8,045 bases of DNA from Escherichia coli (GTDB lineage: Bacteria > Pseudomonadota > Gammaproteobacteria > Enterobacterales > Enterobacteriaceae): assembly GCF_003334815.1 (NCBI RefSeq), contig NZ_QOWO01000066.1; one strand, written 5' to 3'. Position numbers and translations under genes: made by a program. Positions within the stretch are counted from its first letter, which is position 1; the number at the start of each line of letters is the position of its first letter. Below the pieces are notes generated by a model that searched no databases, was not told the origin of the DNA, and saw only the letters and a program-made list of their open reading frames with translations. This document shows, piece after piece, positions 1 to 8,045 of the stretch.

Positions 1-78
1 GTTATCGTGAGAGTAATTCATCGGCACGTTAAATCATATCAGGCGTAATACCACAACCCTTAAGTTAGCGCTTATGGG
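1..78. repeat. Left terminal inverted repeat (78 bp), perfect reverse complement of 7968..8045
   Basis: Hand comparison: bases 1-78 (gttatcgtgagagtaattcatcggcacgtt...ttagcgcttatggg) are the exact reverse complement of the last 78 bases of the window. A further ~12 bp inward match imperfectly (about 7 of 12). Confidence 0.93.
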
Positions 79-124
79 GTAAAACCCCGCGTACTGAATT
101 GTGATGGTTTGGTCTCCTGCACCC

Positions 125-259
125 TTTTTTAATTTATATTGTTTATGTGAATATTATGCCTATGTTTATTATTCATATATATTACGGATGAAAATTATTT
201 GATTATTCATAATGTAAATATTTTATTGAATGATATATATCACAGATAATTTTTAATAT
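125..259 (+). promoter_or_regulatory. AT-rich putative promoter/silencing region upstream of cas3
   Basis: Very AT-rich tract with several TATA-like elements immediately upstream of the cas3 start. From established knowledge, enterobacterial type I-E cas promoters are AT-rich and H-NS repressed. No precise -35/-10 assignment could be made by eye. Confidence 0.4.
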
Positions 260-2959
260 ATGCGTAAATATCCTTTAAGTTTACTGAAGGATAAAAATAT
301 TGTGACTTTTTTTGATTTCTGGGGAAAAACCCGACGCGGCGAGAAAGACGGGGGCGACGACTATCACCTTCTTTGCTGGCATTCGCTGGATGTAGCCGCG
401 ATGGGCTATTTAATGGTTAAAAGAAATTGCTTCGGGCTGGCTGATTATTTTCGTCAATTAGGGATTTCTGACAAGGAACAGGCGGCTCAATTTTTCGCCT
501 GGTTGCTGTGCTGGCACGATATTGGAAAATTTGCCCGCTCTTTTCAACAACTTTACCTGCCCCCTGAACTCAAGATTCAGGAAGGTGCCAGAAAAAATTA
601 CGAAAAAATCTCTCATTCAACGCTGGGCTACTGGTTGTGGAATCATTATTTAAGTGAATGTCAGGAGTTACTTCCTTCATCTTCGCTCTCTCCGCGCAAA
701 CTTAGGCGAGTGATAGAAATGTGGATGCCCGTGACGACAGGGCATCATGGTCGGCCCCCTGATCGTATGGATGAATTGGATAATTTTCTGCCTGAAGACA
801 AAGCTGCAGCACGAGATTTTCTCCTTGAAATCAAACCACTGTTTCCGCTCATAGAGATCCCCGCATTCTGGGATGATGATGAGGGCATTGAACTTATAAA
901 ACACCTTTCCTGGTATATCTCTGCAACCGTCGTGCTCGCAGACTGGACGGGTTCGTCAACGCGATTTTTTCCACGCGTCGCACACCCAATGGATATTAAA
1001 GGTTACTGGCAGAAAACTTTAATTCAGGCTCAAAACGCCTTAACCGTCTTTCCTCTAAAAGCAAAAGTCGCGCCTTTCAACGGAATTAATACGCTGTTTC
1101 CTTTTATTGAGAATCCGACACCGTTACAGCAAAAGGTGCTGGATCTGGATATCAGCCAGCAAGGACCGCAGTTATTTATTCTGGAAGATGTGACTGGCGC
1201 AGGTAAAACAGAAGCGGCGCTTATCCTGGCGCACAGGTTGATAGCTGCGGGGAAAGCTCAGGGGCTGTTTTTTGGTCTGCCAACAATGGCAACGGCCAAT
1301 GCCATGTACGATCGGCTGGTCAAAACCTGGCTTGCTTTCTATTCGCCAGAATCCCGCCCCAGCCTGGTGCTGGCACATAGTGCCCGCACATTAATGGACC
1401 GCTTTAATGAATCACTCTGGTCTGGTGATTTAGTCGGGTCAGAAGAACCGGATGAACAAACGTTCAGTCAGGGATGTGCGGCCTGGTTTGCCGACAGTAA
1501 CAAGAAGGCGTTGCTGGCTGAAATTGGCGTCGGCACGCTGGATCAGGCGATGATGGCGGTGATGCCGTTCAAACATAATAATCTGCGGCTTCTGGGGCTG
1601 AGTAACAAAATCCTGCTGGCTGATGAGATCCACGCCTGTGACGCTTACATGTCGTGCATTCTTGAAGGGTTGATCGAGCGGCAGGCGCGTGGCGGAAACA
1701 GCGTTATTTTGCTTTCTGCCACGTTATCTCAACAGCAGCGCGACAAACTCGTCGCTGCCTTTGCGCGGGGTACAGAGGGCCAGCAAGAAGCTCCGTTCCT
1801 GGAAAAGGATGATTACCCCTGGCTGACGCATGTCACGAAATCCGATGTGAACTCACACCGGGTAGCGACGCGCAAAGACGTTGAGCGTAGCGTCAGCGTG
1901 GGTTGGCTTCATAGTGAACAAGAGTGTATTGCGCGTATCGAATCGGCGGTAAGTCAGGGGAAATGCATCGCCTGGATCCGGAATTCTGTCGATGACGCTA
2001 TTAAGGTTCATCGTCAGCTGCTTGCCCGCGGCGTCATTCCTGCTTCCAGCCTTTCACTTTTTCATAGCCGCTTTGCTTTTAGCGATCGCCAGCGAATTGA
2101 AACGGAAACGCTGGCACGCTTTGGTAAATATTGTAGTTTACAGAGAGCGTCGCAAGTCATTGTTTGTACACAAGTAATTGAGCAAAGCGTGGATATTGAC
2201 CTGGACGAAATGATCTCCGACCTGGCCCCTGTTGATTTGCTGATTCAGCGAGCAGGACGATTACAGCGGCATATCCGCGATATTAATGGTCAGTTAAAGC
2301 GTGACGGAAAGGACGAGCGTTCCCCCCCTGAATTGCTGATTCTGGCTCCCGTCTGGGACGACTCTCCTGGCGACGAATGGTTTGGCAGTGCCATGCGTAA
2401 CAGTGCATTTGTCTATCCCGATCATGGGCGAATCTGGCTGACGCAGCGTGTGCTGCGTGAGCAAGGTGCTATTCAGATGCCACACGCAGCCCGGCTTCTT
2501 ATTGAATCCGTCTACGGTGAGGACGTGGTAATGCCGGAAGGATTTGCCCGCAGCGAGCAGGAGCAAGTGGGCAAATATTACTGTGATCGCGCAATGGCTA
2601 AAAAGTTTGTGCTGAACTTCAGGCCCGGCTATGCCGCCAATATCAACGATTACCTCCCGGAAAAACTGTCGACACGTCTGGCTGAGGAGTCTGTTTCCCT
2701 GTGGCTGGCTACCTGTATTGACGGTGTGGTGAAGCCTTATGCCACCGGTGCTCACGCATGGGAAATGAGCGTTGTCAGAGTGCGCCGAAGCTGGTGGAAA
2801 AAACATCGGGATGAGTTTTCTTTACTGGAGGGAGAGGCGTTCAGGCTGTGGTGCATTGAACAGCGACAAGATCCGGAGATGGCAAACGTGATTTTAGTCA
2901 ACGATGACGAAAGTTGCGGGTATTCGGCTACGGAAGGATTGATTGGCAAGGTTGGTTGA
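260..2959 (+). CDS. cas3: Type I-E Cas3 HD nuclease / superfamily-2 helicase (899 aa)
   Basis: Long ORF with ATG at 260 and TGA at 2957-2959. N-terminal HD-domain motifs (HLLCWHSLDVAA, CWHDIGKF), Walker A (DVTGAGKTEAAL) and DExH-like box (LLADEIHACD). Size and position upstream of cse1 match type I-E cas3. No clear Shine-Dalgarno before the ATG, so the exact start is uncertain. Confidence 0.93.
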   Translation: MRKYPLSLLKDKNIVTFFDFWGKTRRGEKDGGDDYHLLCWHSLDVAAMGYLMVKRNCFGLADYFRQLGISDKEQAAQFFAWLLCWHDIGKFARSFQQLYLPPELKIQEGARKNYEKISHSTLGYWLWNHYLSECQELLPSSSLSPRKLRRVIEMWMPVTTGHHGRPPDRMDELDNFLPEDKAAARDFLLEIKPLFPLIEIPAFWDDDEGIELIKHLSWYISATVVLADWTGSSTRFFPRVAHPMDIKGYWQKTLIQAQNALTVFPLKAKVAPFNGINTLFPFIENPTPLQQKVLDLDISQQGPQLFILEDVTGAGKTEAALILAHRLIAAGKAQGLFFGLPTMATANAMYDRLVKTWLAFYSPESRPSLVLAHSARTLMDRFNESLWSGDLVGSEEPDEQTFSQGCAAWFADSNKKALLAEIGVGTLDQAMMAVMPFKHNNLRLLGLSNKILLADEIHACDAYMSCILEGLIERQARGGNSVILLSATLSQQQRDKLVAAFARGTEGQQEAPFLEKDDYPWLTHVTKSDVNSHRVATRKDVERSVSVGWLHSEQECIARIESAVSQGKCIAWIRNSVDDAIKVHRQLLARGVIPASSLSLFHSRFAFSDRQRIETETLARFGKYCSLQRASQVIVCTQVIEQSVDIDLDEMISDLAPVDLLIQRAGRLQRHIRDINGQLKRDGKDERSPPELLILAPVWDDSPGDEWFGSAMRNSAFVYPDHGRIWLTQRVLREQGAIQMPHAARLLIESVYGEDVVMPEGFARSEQEQVGKYYCDRAMAKKFVLNFRPGYAANINDYLPEKLSTRLAEESVSLWLATCIDGVVKPYATGAHAWEMSVVRVRRSWWKKHRDEFSLLEGEAFRLWCIEQRQDPEMANVILVNDDESCGYSATEGLIGKVG

Positions 2960-3056
2960 GATGTCTGCGACAGGACTCTCTGAATAGTTGATACACCGAA
3001 AAGGATGGAAAGATGGACAACCGACCTGGGATGGTCTTTTTTACGAGAGGATGCGT

Positions 3057-4619
3057 ATGAACTCGTTTTCACTTCTGACAACCCCGTGGTTGCCCGTTCG
3101 TTTTAAAGACGGAACGACAGGCAAACTGGCGCCAGTCGATCTGGCGGATGAAAATGTTGTCGATATTTCTGCGCCGCGGGCAGATCTCCAGGGTGCGGTA
3201 TGGCAGTTTTTGCTGGGGCTACTACAAACCAGCTTCGCGCCAAAAGATCATCGTCGTTGGGATGATATCTGGGAAGACGGACTGGAAGCTGAAAAGCTAC
3301 GGGAAGCATTGCAGTCATTAGAACATGCTTTCCAGTTTGGGCCAGATTCCCCTTCATTTATGCAGGATTTCGAGGCGCTCACCGGAGATAAAGTTCCGGT
3401 CGCTTCGCTACTGCCTGAGATTCCCGGCGCTCAAACAACGAAGTTTAATAAAGACCACTTTATCAAGCGTGGTGTAACGGAATACCTGTGCCCACATTGT
3501 TCTGCGTTAGCTCTGTTCTCCCTACAGTTGAATGCGCCGTCAGGTGGCAAAGGCTACCGCACCGGTTTACGCGGCGGTGGGCCGATGACCACTCTGATTG
3601 AATTACAGGAATATCAGGGTAATCAACAAACTCCCTTGTGGCGCAAACTGTGGATCAATGTCATGCCGCAGGATGAAGCCGATTTACCGCTACCCAAAAA
3701 ATTTGACGATCTGGTTTTCCCCTGGCTTGGCCCGACGCGCACCAGCGAACTGGCCGGTGCGGTGGTAACCGATGAGCAGGTCAATAAACTCCAGGCGTAC
3801 TGGGGAATGCCTCGCCGTATTCGTATTGATTTTAATACCACGACAGTCGGCAACTGCGATATTTGCGGTGAGCAGAGCGACGCGCTCCTGAGCCTGATGA
3901 CGACCAAAAATTACGGTGCGAATTATGCCATGTGGCAGCATCCCTTAACGCCTTACCGTGTACCACTTAAAGAGGGTGGCGAGTTTTACTCCGTTAAACC
4001 ACAACCGGGCGGTTTAATCTGGCGTGACTGGTTAGGCCTTATCGAAACGGGTAAATCAGAAAACAATACGGAACTTCCCGCGCTGGTGGTGAAACTCTTC
4101 AATGCCAGCAGTCTCAAGCAGGCAAAAGTGGGCCTGTGGGGATTTGGCTATGATTTCGACAACATGAAAGCGCGCTGTTGGTACGAACACCATTTCCCGC
4201 TGCTGCTCGATAAAAAAGAAGGTCAGATACCGAAGCTGCGGCTGGCTGCGCAAACAGCTTCACGGATTCTAAGTCTGTTACGGAGTGCATTGAAAGAAGC
4301 ATGGTTCTCCGATCCAAAAGGTGCAAGGGGTGATTTTAGTTTTGTGGATATCGACTTCTGGAACAAAACTCAGCATCGCTTTCTGAGGTTAGTGCGCCAA
4401 ATTGAAGAAGGTCAGGATGCGGATGAATTACTCAGCAAATGGAATAAGGAAATTTGGTTATTCGCACGTCAGGATTTTGACGAGCGTGTATTCACCAATC
4501 CTTATGAGCCCGTTGATCTGGAACGCGTCATGACCGCGCGCAAGAAATATTTTACAACATCGGCGGAGAAGCAAAGTGCTAAAGCCGCCAGGGAGAAAAA
4601 GCAGGAGGCTGCTGAATGA
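3057..4619 (+). CDS. cse1: Cascade large subunit Cse1/Cas8e (CasA), ~520 aa
   Basis: N-terminus MNSFSLLTTPWLPVRFKDG resembles the E. coli CasA N-terminus (..NWIPVR..) and an internal GLRGGGPMTT resembles CasA SGLRGGTPVTT, both as I recall them. The stop overlaps the cse2 start. Start chosen at ATG 3057, with GAGG six nt upstream; the ORF-track start at 2988 is a TTG, and ATG 3051 is also possible. Confidence 0.88.
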   Translation: MNSFSLLTTPWLPVRFKDGTTGKLAPVDLADENVVDISAPRADLQGAVWQFLLGLLQTSFAPKDHRRWDDIWEDGLEAEKLREALQSLEHAFQFGPDSPSFMQDFEALTGDKVPVASLLPEIPGAQTTKFNKDHFIKRGVTEYLCPHCSALALFSLQLNAPSGGKGYRTGLRGGGPMTTLIELQEYQGNQQTPLWRKLWINVMPQDEADLPLPKKFDDLVFPWLGPTRTSELAGAVVTDEQVNKLQAYWGMPRRIRIDFNTTTVGNCDICGEQSDALLSLMTTKNYGANYAMWQHPLTPYRVPLKEGGEFYSVKPQPGGLIWRDWLGLIETGKSENNTELPALVVKLFNASSLKQAKVGLWGFGYDFDNMKARCWYEHHFPLLLDKKEGQIPKLRLAAQTASRILSLLRSALKEAWFSDPKGARGDFSFVDIDFWNKTQHRFLRLVRQIEEGQDADELLSKWNKEIWLFARQDFDERVFTNPYEPVDLERVMTARKKYFTTSAEKQSAKAAREKKQEAAE

Positions 4620-5152
4620 GTATTGTAAAAGAGGAGCACAAAGCCACGCTGCGCAAATGGCACGAGGAATTGCAGGAGAAACGTGGCGAACGTGCCAGTC
4701 TGCGGCGTAGTACGACGGTTAATGATGTTTGTCTGACGGATGGATTTCGCCTGTTTCTGAAGAACAGACAAATAAAGTGGCAGGATGAACCTGAGTGGCG
4801 TATCACCGCACTGGCGCTGATAGCCGCAGTTAGCGCCAATGTTAAAGCTATTGATGAACGGCAGCCTTTTGCCGCGCAGCTGGCGGCGGTAATGTCAAAG
4901 GGGCGTTTTACTCGTCTGTCGGCAGTAAAAACACCGGATGAATTACTGCGCCAGTTACGCCGCGCAGTCAGATTATTAAACGGTTCCGTCAATCTTGACT
5001 CTCTGGCAGAGGGGGTCTTCCGTTGGTGCCAGGAGAGCGACGACCTGCTCAATCATCACCGCCGCCAGCAGCGGCCAACCGAATTTATCCGTATCCGCTG
5101 GGCGCTGGAATATTACCAGGCTGGCGACGCCGATAACGAACAAAATCAATAA
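4616..5152 (+). CDS. cse2: Cascade small subunit Cse2/Cas11 (CasB), 178 aa
   Basis: ATG at 4616 overlaps the cse1 stop (ATGA), with AGGAGG about 8 nt upstream. Size, basic/helical composition and position between cse1 and the cas7 start are as expected for Cse2. Assignment is mainly by synteny and size. Confidence 0.8.
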   Translation: MSIVKEEHKATLRKWHEELQEKRGERASLRRSTTVNDVCLTDGFRLFLKNRQIKWQDEPEWRITALALIAAVSANVKAIDERQPFAAQLAAVMSKGRFTRLSAVKTPDELLRQLRRAVRLLNGSVNLDSLAEGVFRWCQESDDLLNHHRRQQRPTEFIRIRWALEYYQAGDADNEQNQ

Positions 5153-5163
5153 AGGACTATCTC

Positions 5164-5208
5164 ATGACAACATTTATTCAGCTTCATTTGTTAAGGGGCG
5201 GCTTATGA
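5164..5208 (+). pseudogene. cas7: cas7 (casC/cse4) remnant: 14-codon stub MTTFIQLHLLRGGL*
   Basis: ATG at 5164 preceded by AAAGGA at the expected spacing. The first residues (MTTFIQLHLL) resemble the E. coli CasC N-terminus (MSNFINIHVL, as I recall it). The ORF ends after 14 codons at a TGA that overlaps the cas5 ATG. A native cas7 is about 360 codons. Confidence 0.5.
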
Positions 5209-5526
5209 GCCAATATCTGATTTTTCAGCTTCATGGGCCGATGGCGTCCTGGGGTGTCGATGCTCCAGGTGAAGTTCGTCATACCCATGAACTTCCTTCG
5301 CGCTCAGCATTGCTGGGGCTACTGGCTGCCGGGGTAGGGATTCGGCGTGATGATACCGAACGCTTAAACGCGTTTAATCGCCACTATTCACTGGTGGTTT
5401 GCGCCAGCCGTAACCCGCGCTGGGCACGGGATTATCACACGGTCCAGATGCCAAAAGAGGTGCGTAAAGCACGTTATTTCAGCCGTCGCGAAGAGTTGAG
5501 CGACCCTGATCCGCACGCACATTCCG

Positions 5527-6605
<1,079 letters not shown>

Positions 6606-6701
6606 GTTATCCGTTCTTTAAAAATAAGGAAATGTTTTAATTTAGTTGGTAGATTGTTGATGCGGAATAAATTTGTTTAAAAACAGTTATGTATGCTTAG
6701 T
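6606..6701 (+). promoter_or_regulatory. CRISPR leader (AT-rich, between cas2 and first repeat)
   Basis: 96-bp AT-rich segment immediately upstream of repeat 1 and downstream of cas2, the canonical I-E leader position that carries the array promoter and IHF/integration signals. Confidence 0.8.
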
Positions 6702-7949
6702 GTGTTCCCCGCGCCAGCGGGGATAAACCGAACATTAAATTGCCGTGCTGGATGAATCGCGGGTGTTCCCCGCGCCAGCGGGGATAAACCCTGGATCAGC
6801 TGGTTCAATCGTTTACAGCACTGGTGTTCCCCGCGCCAGCGGGGATAAACCGGCAGTAAATTATTTGACCTCGTTGATAATCCCGTGTTCCCCGCGCCAG
6901 CGGGGATAAACCGCCGGTGCAACTGATATTGATAAACGTCGACTCGTGTTCCCCGCGCCAGCGGGGATAAACCGACACCCGACCGCTAACCGATTTCGTT
7001 ACAGTAGTGTTCCCCGCGCCAGCGGGGATAAACCGTGTATCACCGAAAGAATGGTTTGACGCGCAGGGTGTTCCCCGCGCCAGCGGGGATAAACCGACGT
7101 CTATCATTTTCAGTACAAGCTGGGTTTTGTGTTCCCCGCGCCAGCGGGGATAAACCGGACGATCCCGAGATTCACAGAGTTACAACTAAGTGTTCCCCGC
7201 GCCAGCGGGGATAAACCGGAAATTTTCACATGGATTGTAGCCCTGTATATGTGTTCCCCGCGCCAGCGGGGATAAACCGGCCAGGCGGTCGGATTAGGTG
7301 CAAATCAAAATGTGTTCCCCGCGCCAGCGGGGATAAACCGCGCTGGCGGTGCGAGTGCTGGAGGCGCTGAAAGTGTTCCCCGCGCCAGCGGGGATAAACC
7401 GCAGGAGACGGCCAGCCGGAACGGCGGCGGCGTGTGTTCCCCGCGCCAGCGGGGATAAACCGTCGGGCGGCTCTGGTGTTCCTGACATGGCGGCGTGTTC
7501 CCCGCGCCAGCGGGGATAAACCGAATTTGCATCACATAGGGGCGAGGCTCAGTGAGTGTTCCCCGCGCCAGCGGGGATAAACCGTTCTTGCGGGTGTTGC
7601 AAATATTCTCCACGTAGTGTTCCCCGCGCCAGCGGGGATAAACCGCCTGTTTTTTGTGCGGGGAATTATGGGGGAATGTGTTCCCCGCGCCAGCGGGGAT
7701 AAACCGTTATACTGATTTTGATTTGTATTTCGGTCGCTGTGTTCCCCGCGCCAGCGGGGATAAACCGACACGCCCTGCCGTATTTACTGACGCGCAGGAG
7801 TGTTCCCCGCGCCAGCGGGGATAAACCGCCGCGCAAATCCAGCGAGCCGCCGACGCTCAGTGTTCCCCGCGCCAGCGGGGATAAACCGTTGCAAACCGTG
7901 GCAAACGCAATTAACAAAAAGTGTTCCCCGCGCCAGCGGGGATAAACCG
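6702..7949 (+). CRISPR. Type I-E CRISPR array: 21 x 29-bp repeats (GTGTTCCCCGCGCCAGCGGGGATAAACCG), 20 unique spacers
   Basis: Repeat starts at 6702, 6763, 6824 and so on at 61-bp period to 7800, then 7860 and 7921. Spacers are 32 bp except spacer 19 (7829-7859, 31 bp). Repeat 2 ends in C instead of G (6791). The repeat has the CCCCGC/GCGGGG stem and ATAAACCG 5-prime handle typical of I-E crRNA. Transcribed on + from the leader, so the newest spacer is 6731-6762. Confidence 0.97.
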
Positions 7950-7967
7950 AGTTAAGAGGGGGTTTTT

Positions 7968-8045
7968 CCCATAAGCGCTAACTTAAGGGTTGTGGTATTA
8001 CGCCTGATATGATTTAACGTGCCGATGAATTACTCTCACGATAAC
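7968..8045. repeat. Right terminal inverted repeat (78 bp), reverse complement of 1..78
   Basis: Hand comparison shows an exact reverse-complement match to bases 1-78. It begins 18 bp after the last CRISPR repeat. Confidence 0.93.

Follow-up and report, generated by a model that had tools for sequence, protein, structure and literature searches.

Probable natural decay of a type I-E CRISPR-Cas locus in Escherichia coli through an out-of-frame microhomology deletion of cas7e

In type I-E Cascade, a hexamer of Cas7 forms the backbone that binds the crRNA, and the type I-E locus of E. coli is usually regarded as silent. Engineered loss of this protein is represented by the laboratory ΔcasC (Δcas7) K-12 strains of the Keio type, in which the deletion is in frame by design, leaves an FRT/resistance scar and lies in the cas-E2 variant of the locus. 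Under the nomenclature of PMC3903273, which separates cas-E1 from cas-E2, partial or interrupted cas-E genes have already been described in E. coli and Shigella (Almendros et al. 2014, PMC3903273), and a recently inactivated CRISPR-Cas system is a known phenomenon. Alternative end joining in E. coli, in the part of the work of Chayot et al. 2010 that is cited in PMC6990116, gives rise to kilobase-scale deletions at microhomologies of 1–9 bp with no inserted bases. Here we analysed a locus of the cas-E1 variant, which is prevalent in E. coli and is not the cas-E2 variant of K-12, in which little is left of cas7e. We found that the gene was in all probability (about 0.9) lost by a spontaneous, out-of-frame microhomology deletion that was followed by a second deletion, representing natural decay of the type I-E locus.

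The window, that is the whole stretch of 8,045 nt that was analysed, is a short-read contig of wild E. coli that is broken at IS421 repeats. Its + strand encodes a type I-E CRISPR-Cas locus arranged as cas3-casA-casB-stub-cas5e/cas1e remnants-cas2e-leader-array. An IS421 end lies at each contig boundary (1–88 and 7959–8045, no strand assigned); the reverse match of 1–88 to 7959–8045 revealed that the two are inverted copies of each other, and the identity of the second was further indicated by the IS421 genes flanking the locus in the intact reference strain, E. coli NCTC9100 (NZ_LR134239.1, called L001 here when its own coordinates are given). IS421 transposase genes border the locus in both NCTC9100 and strain 52F4. 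Matches to NCBIfam profiles confirmed that the open reading frames of the window encode full-length Cas3 (260–2959, +, 899 aa; TIGR01587 and TIGR01596, with 100% nucleotide identity to NCTC9100), Cse1/CasA (3057–4619, +, 520 aa; TIGR02547, 610 bits), Cse2/CasB (4616–5152, +, 178 aa; TIGR02548, 99 bits) and Cas2e (6312–6605, +, 97 aa; TIGR01873), the casA start at 3057 being taken from the PGAP annotation of the NCTC9100 locus and the gene call in L003. The Cas3 helicase-nuclease, Cse1/CasA and Cse2/CasB are accompanied by an AT-rich leader, which is the sequence between cas2 and the first repeat (6606–6701, +), and by the array that follows it, with repeats of 29 nt and spacers of 32 nt. The array (6702–7949, +) has 21 repeats (GTGTTCCCCGCGCCAGCGGGGATAAACCG) and 20 spacers with a periodicity of 61 nt, and was shortened by an IS421 insertion. 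When window 1–8045 was scanned against Rfam at gathering thresholds there were no matches, the CRISPR direct-repeat family included, despite the canonical 29-nt repeat. Contig CBDBYT010000080.1 of E. coli assembly GCA_965212685.1 differed from the window by a single mismatch, at position 84.

Downstream of casB, an ATG at 5164 opens a short reading frame of 14 sense codons (MTTFIQLHLLRGGL; 5164–5208, +), which is preceded by the Shine-Dalgarno sequence AAGGA at 5152–5156 and closed by a TGA at 5206–5208 that overlaps the cas5e ATG at 5205–5207. The original prediction had described the well-placed ribosome-binding site, the start, the length and the overlap exactly as we found them, and had read the frame as the N-terminus of Cas7. 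This identification was borne out by the comparison with NCTC9100, whose Cas7e (351 aa; TIGR01869, 445 bits) begins with MTTFIQLHLLTAYPAANLNR: the first 10 codons of the stub are identical to it, and codons 11–14 (RGGL) come from out-of-frame reading of the intergenic spacer. Because window 1–5194 is 100% identical to the intact NCTC9100 locus, the stub is a remnant of cas7 and not a chance resemblance. A conserved leader peptide was rejected as an alternative identity for the stub, as the same ATG opens a full cas7e in every intact relative inspected. With 10 of 351 native codons left, no full-length Cas7e is encoded in the window and no Cascade backbone is possible, in agreement with what had been predicted. 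The stub is passed over silently by gene callers and by PGAP, so that the defect goes unflagged in the annotation.

An alignment against an intact I-E locus had been proposed as the way to obtain the endpoints of the loss and any microhomology, and it yielded a 3-bp TAA and a deletion of 1,025 bp, matching the roughly 1 kb of cas7 thought to be missing. Window 1–5194 corresponded to L001 1501–6694 and window 5192–5509 to L001 7717–8034, the left and right alignments overlapping by 3 bp with zero bases inserted. In the intact locus a TAA stands at both endpoints (L001 6692–6694, in codons 10–11, and L001 7717–7719, the native stop codon of cas7e), and one copy of this short direct repeat is kept in the window (5192–5194, +). 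The deletion covers cas7e nt 32–1056 or 29–1053. Dividing 1,025 by 3 leaves a remainder of 2, so the deletion is out of frame, and the clean in-frame loss that had been proposed did not withstand the alignment. The native stop survives at 5192–5194 but, with a loss that is not divisible by three, the stub reads through it in the +1 frame; the shifted frame across the junction is TTA-AGG-GGC-GGC-TTA-TGA and passes through both the old stop and the intergenic spacer. In the intact layout, cas7e occupies L001 6664–7719 and cas5e starts at 7730, an arrangement of TAA-GGGGCGGCTT-ATG with a 10-nt spacer. Since intact cas7e stops 10 nt before the cas5e ATG, the ATGA overlap is a by-product of the frameshift, and not the native coupling junction for which it had been taken. 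Any coupling of cas5 that might persist because translation of the stub stops at its ATG would be accidental. We found no FRT, lox, restriction or marker scar and no foreign or filler bases at this junction, which is made of contiguous native sequence.

The same alignment revealed a second deletion, of 1,188 bp, about 300 bp downstream of the first junction and extending from cas5e nt 306 to cas1e nt 116. Window 5508–6707 corresponded to L001 9221–10420 with 100% identity, and the two sides share a 2-bp GA (5508–5509, +), again a short direct repeat at both endpoints with one copy kept and zero inserted bases. The right endpoint, cas1e nt 117, lies exactly at a GATC. Cas5e residues 102–248, all of cas6e and Cas1e residues 1–39 were lost in this deletion. 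What is left of cas5e forms a chimeric open reading frame of 141 aa (5205–5630, +), in which Cas5e residues 1–101 are followed by 40 out-of-frame residues from cas1e; it matches TIGR01868 at positions 1–95 of 230 only, and has been deposited as hypothetical protein CAM9424706.1. The Cas5 cluster that holds it includes many truncated Cas5e entries from E. coli and Shigella. The cas1e remnant (5509–6315, +) matches TIGR03638 at positions 43–268 of 269 and is without codons 1–39 and its own translation start. Full-length Cas5e and Cas6e are thus both missing from the window, cas6e lying wholly inside the deleted segment, and the Cas1e-Cas2e adaptation module is reduced to an intact Cas2e beside the truncated Cas1e.

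Because the joints are 2–3 bp repeats with one copy kept, with nothing inserted and neither an IS nor a recombinase site present, the deletions are best explained by spontaneous illegitimate recombination. In the first event, RecA-independent illegitimate recombination would have joined two TAA triplets that lay 1,025 bp apart, with one TAA being kept. We infer the repair pathway from the anatomy of the junctions, and the candidates are replication slippage and microhomology-mediated end joining (RecBCD/LigA), either of which would leave the same junction. The 10 surviving codons would then run through the old stop, cross the 10-nt spacer and end by accident at the TGA over the cas5e ATG.

The distribution of the deletion was then examined. 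A 231-nt query across junction 1 was matched end to end in 1 of 5,426 complete E. coli genomes, that of strain 52F4 (calf, Switzerland), and as two separate halves only in about 2,650 complete genomes. In 52F4, annotated by PGAP, casB is directly followed by intact cas5e, cas6e, cas1e and cas2e, so this strain has deletion 1 and lacks deletion 2; a query of casB/cas7/cas5 matched a single place in its genome, which leaves no second cas7e of this variant there, and a further Cas7e would also be unexpected from what is generally known of E. coli. An exact-protein look-up with the Cas5e of 52F4 revealed 9 further draft contigs in which casB abuts cas5e, and the single one of these that was retrieved (L010, GCA_051411935.1) has a junction identical to that of the window. 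The chimeric Cas5 frame, which marks deletion 2, was found in 3 contigs. Overall, 52F4 and about 12 draft assemblies carry the deletion-1 allele, at least 9 of the drafts having deletion 1 only. Furthermore, a SNP at 5331 relative to NCTC9100 (Cas5e R43G) is common to the window, 52F4 and L010 and is a marker linked to the deletion allele, and the arrays of these three and of NCTC9100 each contain part of a single ancestral array, sharing two spacers next to the leader and two at the distal end. The shared SNP and the related arrays indicate that deletion 1 is shared by common descent; most probably it occurred a single time and survives in a small lineage made up of 52F4 and the drafts.

This sharing of alleles between assemblies also gave the order of events. 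In the simplest history, a single Δcas7 event would have occurred in the common ancestor of the window, 52F4 and L010, after which the branch of the window would have lost the cas5-cas6e-cas1 segment together with two spacers, and no new spacer would have been acquired anywhere in the group. The related arrays differ by internal spacer losses only, that of the window being the L010 array minus two internal spacers, and the shared leader-proximal spacers indicate that there was no acquisition since divergence, the strain with the intact operon included. Since the surviving cas genes are 100% identical to those of intact relatives, the events are recent.

The spacers of the window matched phage and plasmid collections only weakly. 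Spacer 2 (6853–6884) aligned over 34 bases, three of them mismatched, with a few records of Escherichia phages, and the lone 'plasmid' match was discarded as a mislabelled 4.8-Mb chromosome carrying a CRISPR array. Spacer 4 (6975–7006) had a 32/32 match, preceded by ATG, to the baseplate J gene of a P2-like prophage in strain GF131, and its match in TUM13936 lies in an annotated baseplate assembly protein; spacer 6 (7097–7128) had a 32/32 match, also preceded by ATG, to the terminase large-subunit gene of a P2-like prophage in strain S1-KEN-03-A. An ATG PAM permits interference in the cas-E2 system of K-12, and cas-E1 may differ. Spacer 18 (7829–7859) is 31 nt long, and the second repeat ends in C, not G. 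As to the mobile elements, two inverted IS421 copies bracket the locus, the first lying upstream of cas3 and the second within the CRISPR array. Compared with cysH and iap on its flanks, the entire cas/CRISPR segment between the IS421 copies has the opposite orientation in 52F4, with the remaining array beyond the other IS copy, and in NCTC9100 the segment is not inverted. A literature search for IS421 with CRISPR returned mobile-element inventories only and nothing on such an arrangement.

With respect to function, a null cas7 would leave no Cas7 hexamer and in turn no Cascade, so that neither interference nor primed adaptation would be expected. In the strain of the window, deletion 2 would additionally abolish crRNA processing and spacer acquisition. 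In strains of the 52F4 type, Cas6e and Cas1-Cas2 could still work in principle. The locus in the window is an orphan array with relics of cas3, casA, casB and cas2.

To place these deletions among others, we inspected the genomes with incomplete cas7e and the matches to junction 2. Among the 2,649 genomes that matched cas7e, 2,631 had at least 80% of the gene and 18 (about 0.7%) had less than 80%. Independent operon deletions were found in four backgrounds, joined at microhomologies of 2–5 bp. VTB96935v has lost 899 bp from cas5e to cas6e, with a 5-bp CCGAT overlap; 2018-05-2CC has an IS1 in cas3 and deletions of 3,520 bp and 1,407 bp, each with a 2-bp overlap; YD786 and its relatives have lost 3,314 bp from cas3 to cas7e, with a 2-bp TG overlap; and in PI12 the loss begins at cas7e nt 38 and reaches the cas1e 3′ end, where the junction is not exactly placed and a shared TTA was noted by inspection. 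The Cas3, CasA and CasB proteins of PI12 are identical, and its deletion of about 3.2 kb (seen at L006 6001–6061) has a left end 7 nt from that of the window (nt 38 versus nt 31). The GATC at the right endpoint of deletion 2 (window 5508, L001 9221) is also that of the 1,407-bp cas5-cas1 deletion of 2018-05-2CC (L005 6507), which is about 6% divergent, and the junction of VTB96935v (CCGAT/CC) is likewise on a GATC. We considered whether the cas5-cas1 deletion of 2018-05-2CC was a further-deleted form of the window allele and rejected this, given the approximately 6% divergence of the flanks. The shared GATC endpoint may reflect a break hotspot or coincidence, GATC sites being dense in the 5′ region of cas1e. 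Selection or a fragile site could be behind the three or four independent deletions in close alleles and the left ends at cas7 nt 31 and nt 38 in two strains. A broader proposal, that Cascade-gene deletions in the cas-E1 allele group are selected escapes which tolerate P2-like prophages matched by spacers, that the operon contains break hotspots (the GATC at cas1e nt 117; cas7e nt 31/38), or both, is speculative and we regard it as unlikely.

Three other explanations of the missing cas7 were weighed against natural decay. The idea of an engineered, non-polar in-frame deletion drew on the stub ending at a TGA over the cas5 ATG with the cas5 Shine-Dalgarno sequence kept, by which downstream translation could persist, and on the intact downstream genes of 52F4. 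It is almost certainly wrong, since a loss of 1,025 bp shifts the frame, native sequence meets at a 3-bp overlap free of any FRT, lox or restriction scar, and the ATGA overlap is not the native arrangement. The allele moreover occurs in a calf isolate and about 12 drafts of wild E. coli, in cas-E1 and not in the laboratory variant of K-12, and 300 bp from it there is another deletion that was plainly not designed. Frame, scarless junction and distribution among wild isolates thus contradict the engineered deletion favoured by the original prediction, which had dismissed random decay as unlikely to keep the frame; the frame was not kept, and random decay is the best fit. A collapse of an intact cas7 by a short-read assembler is scarcely more credible. 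An approximately 8-kb contig bounded by IS421 repeats is typical of fragmented short-read assembly, but shared endpoints of 3 bp are far below any k-mer able to cause a collapse, and the same junction is present in the complete chromosome of 52F4 and in contigs from several other samples.

More weight, although still little, belongs to the possibility that the Cas7 null, and later the cas5-cas6e-cas1 deletion, were favoured by relief from autoimmunity or by lysogeny of a targeted prophage. The full-length matches of spacers 4 and 6 to P2-like prophage genes of other E. coli, with the preceding ATG, are consistent with such selection, as is the finding of several independent Cascade-gene deletions among near-identical cas alleles, and deletion of cas genes is a documented escape from self-targeting (PMC6990116). 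However, 52F4 has the same Δcas7 without spacers 4 and 6, the spacer query having matched only its CRISPR array. The type I-E system has also been reported to be silent in K-12 derivatives (PMC3903273), though the variant there is cas-E2 and the same paper cautions that findings in K-12 may not apply to cas-E1. Finally, the proportion of cas7e-matching genomes that are less than 80% complete, about 0.7%, is compatible with sporadic neutral decay. Selected loss is therefore improbable, and we infer that the loss was neutral.

Spontaneous microhomology deletion within a decaying locus thus remains our preferred reading, and it has consequences for how such loci are read. A short open reading frame that ends on the start codon of the next gene does not show that a deletion was designed or in frame, and it is alignment to an intact relative that decides. 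The lineage should be counted as CRISPR-Cas-defective despite its cas3, casA, casB and cas2 and its array of 20 spacers. The results suggest that, besides IS elements, small microhomology deletions gradually dismantle the type I-E loci of E. coli, which is consistent with weak selection for their maintenance.

Compared with known systems, the window has the same gene order and IS421 flanks as the intact cas-E1 locus of NCTC9100, which is of the same variant as that in O157:H7 and has a cas7e about 96% identical to the one in O157:H7. The two are 100% identical in nucleotide sequence over cas3-casA-casB, the first 31 nt of cas7e, cas1e from nt 117 onward, cas2e and the leader, and they share the array; the window differs in being without 1,025 bp of cas7e and 1,188 bp of cas5e/cas6e/cas1e, and in a few internal spacers. 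As in the laboratory ΔcasC strains, Cas7 is lost while downstream cas genes are potentially translated, and neither Cascade nor interference would be expected; unlike in those strains, the deletion shifts the frame, leaves no scar, lies in cas-E1 and is found in wild isolates. The degenerate cas-E loci of PMC3903273 resemble the window in having damaged cas genes beside a retained array in an IS-flanked locus, but they were mostly ascribed to IS-promoted deletions, whereas the two deletions described here lie within the operon, arose independently of IS and have microhomologies of 2–3 bp at their joints. In these respects they are similar to the end-joining deletions of Chayot et al. 2010, as far as these are described in PMC6990116, which are likewise of kilobase scale with microhomology joints and no insertions, and a comparable pathway, or replication slippage, may have acted in the present locus.
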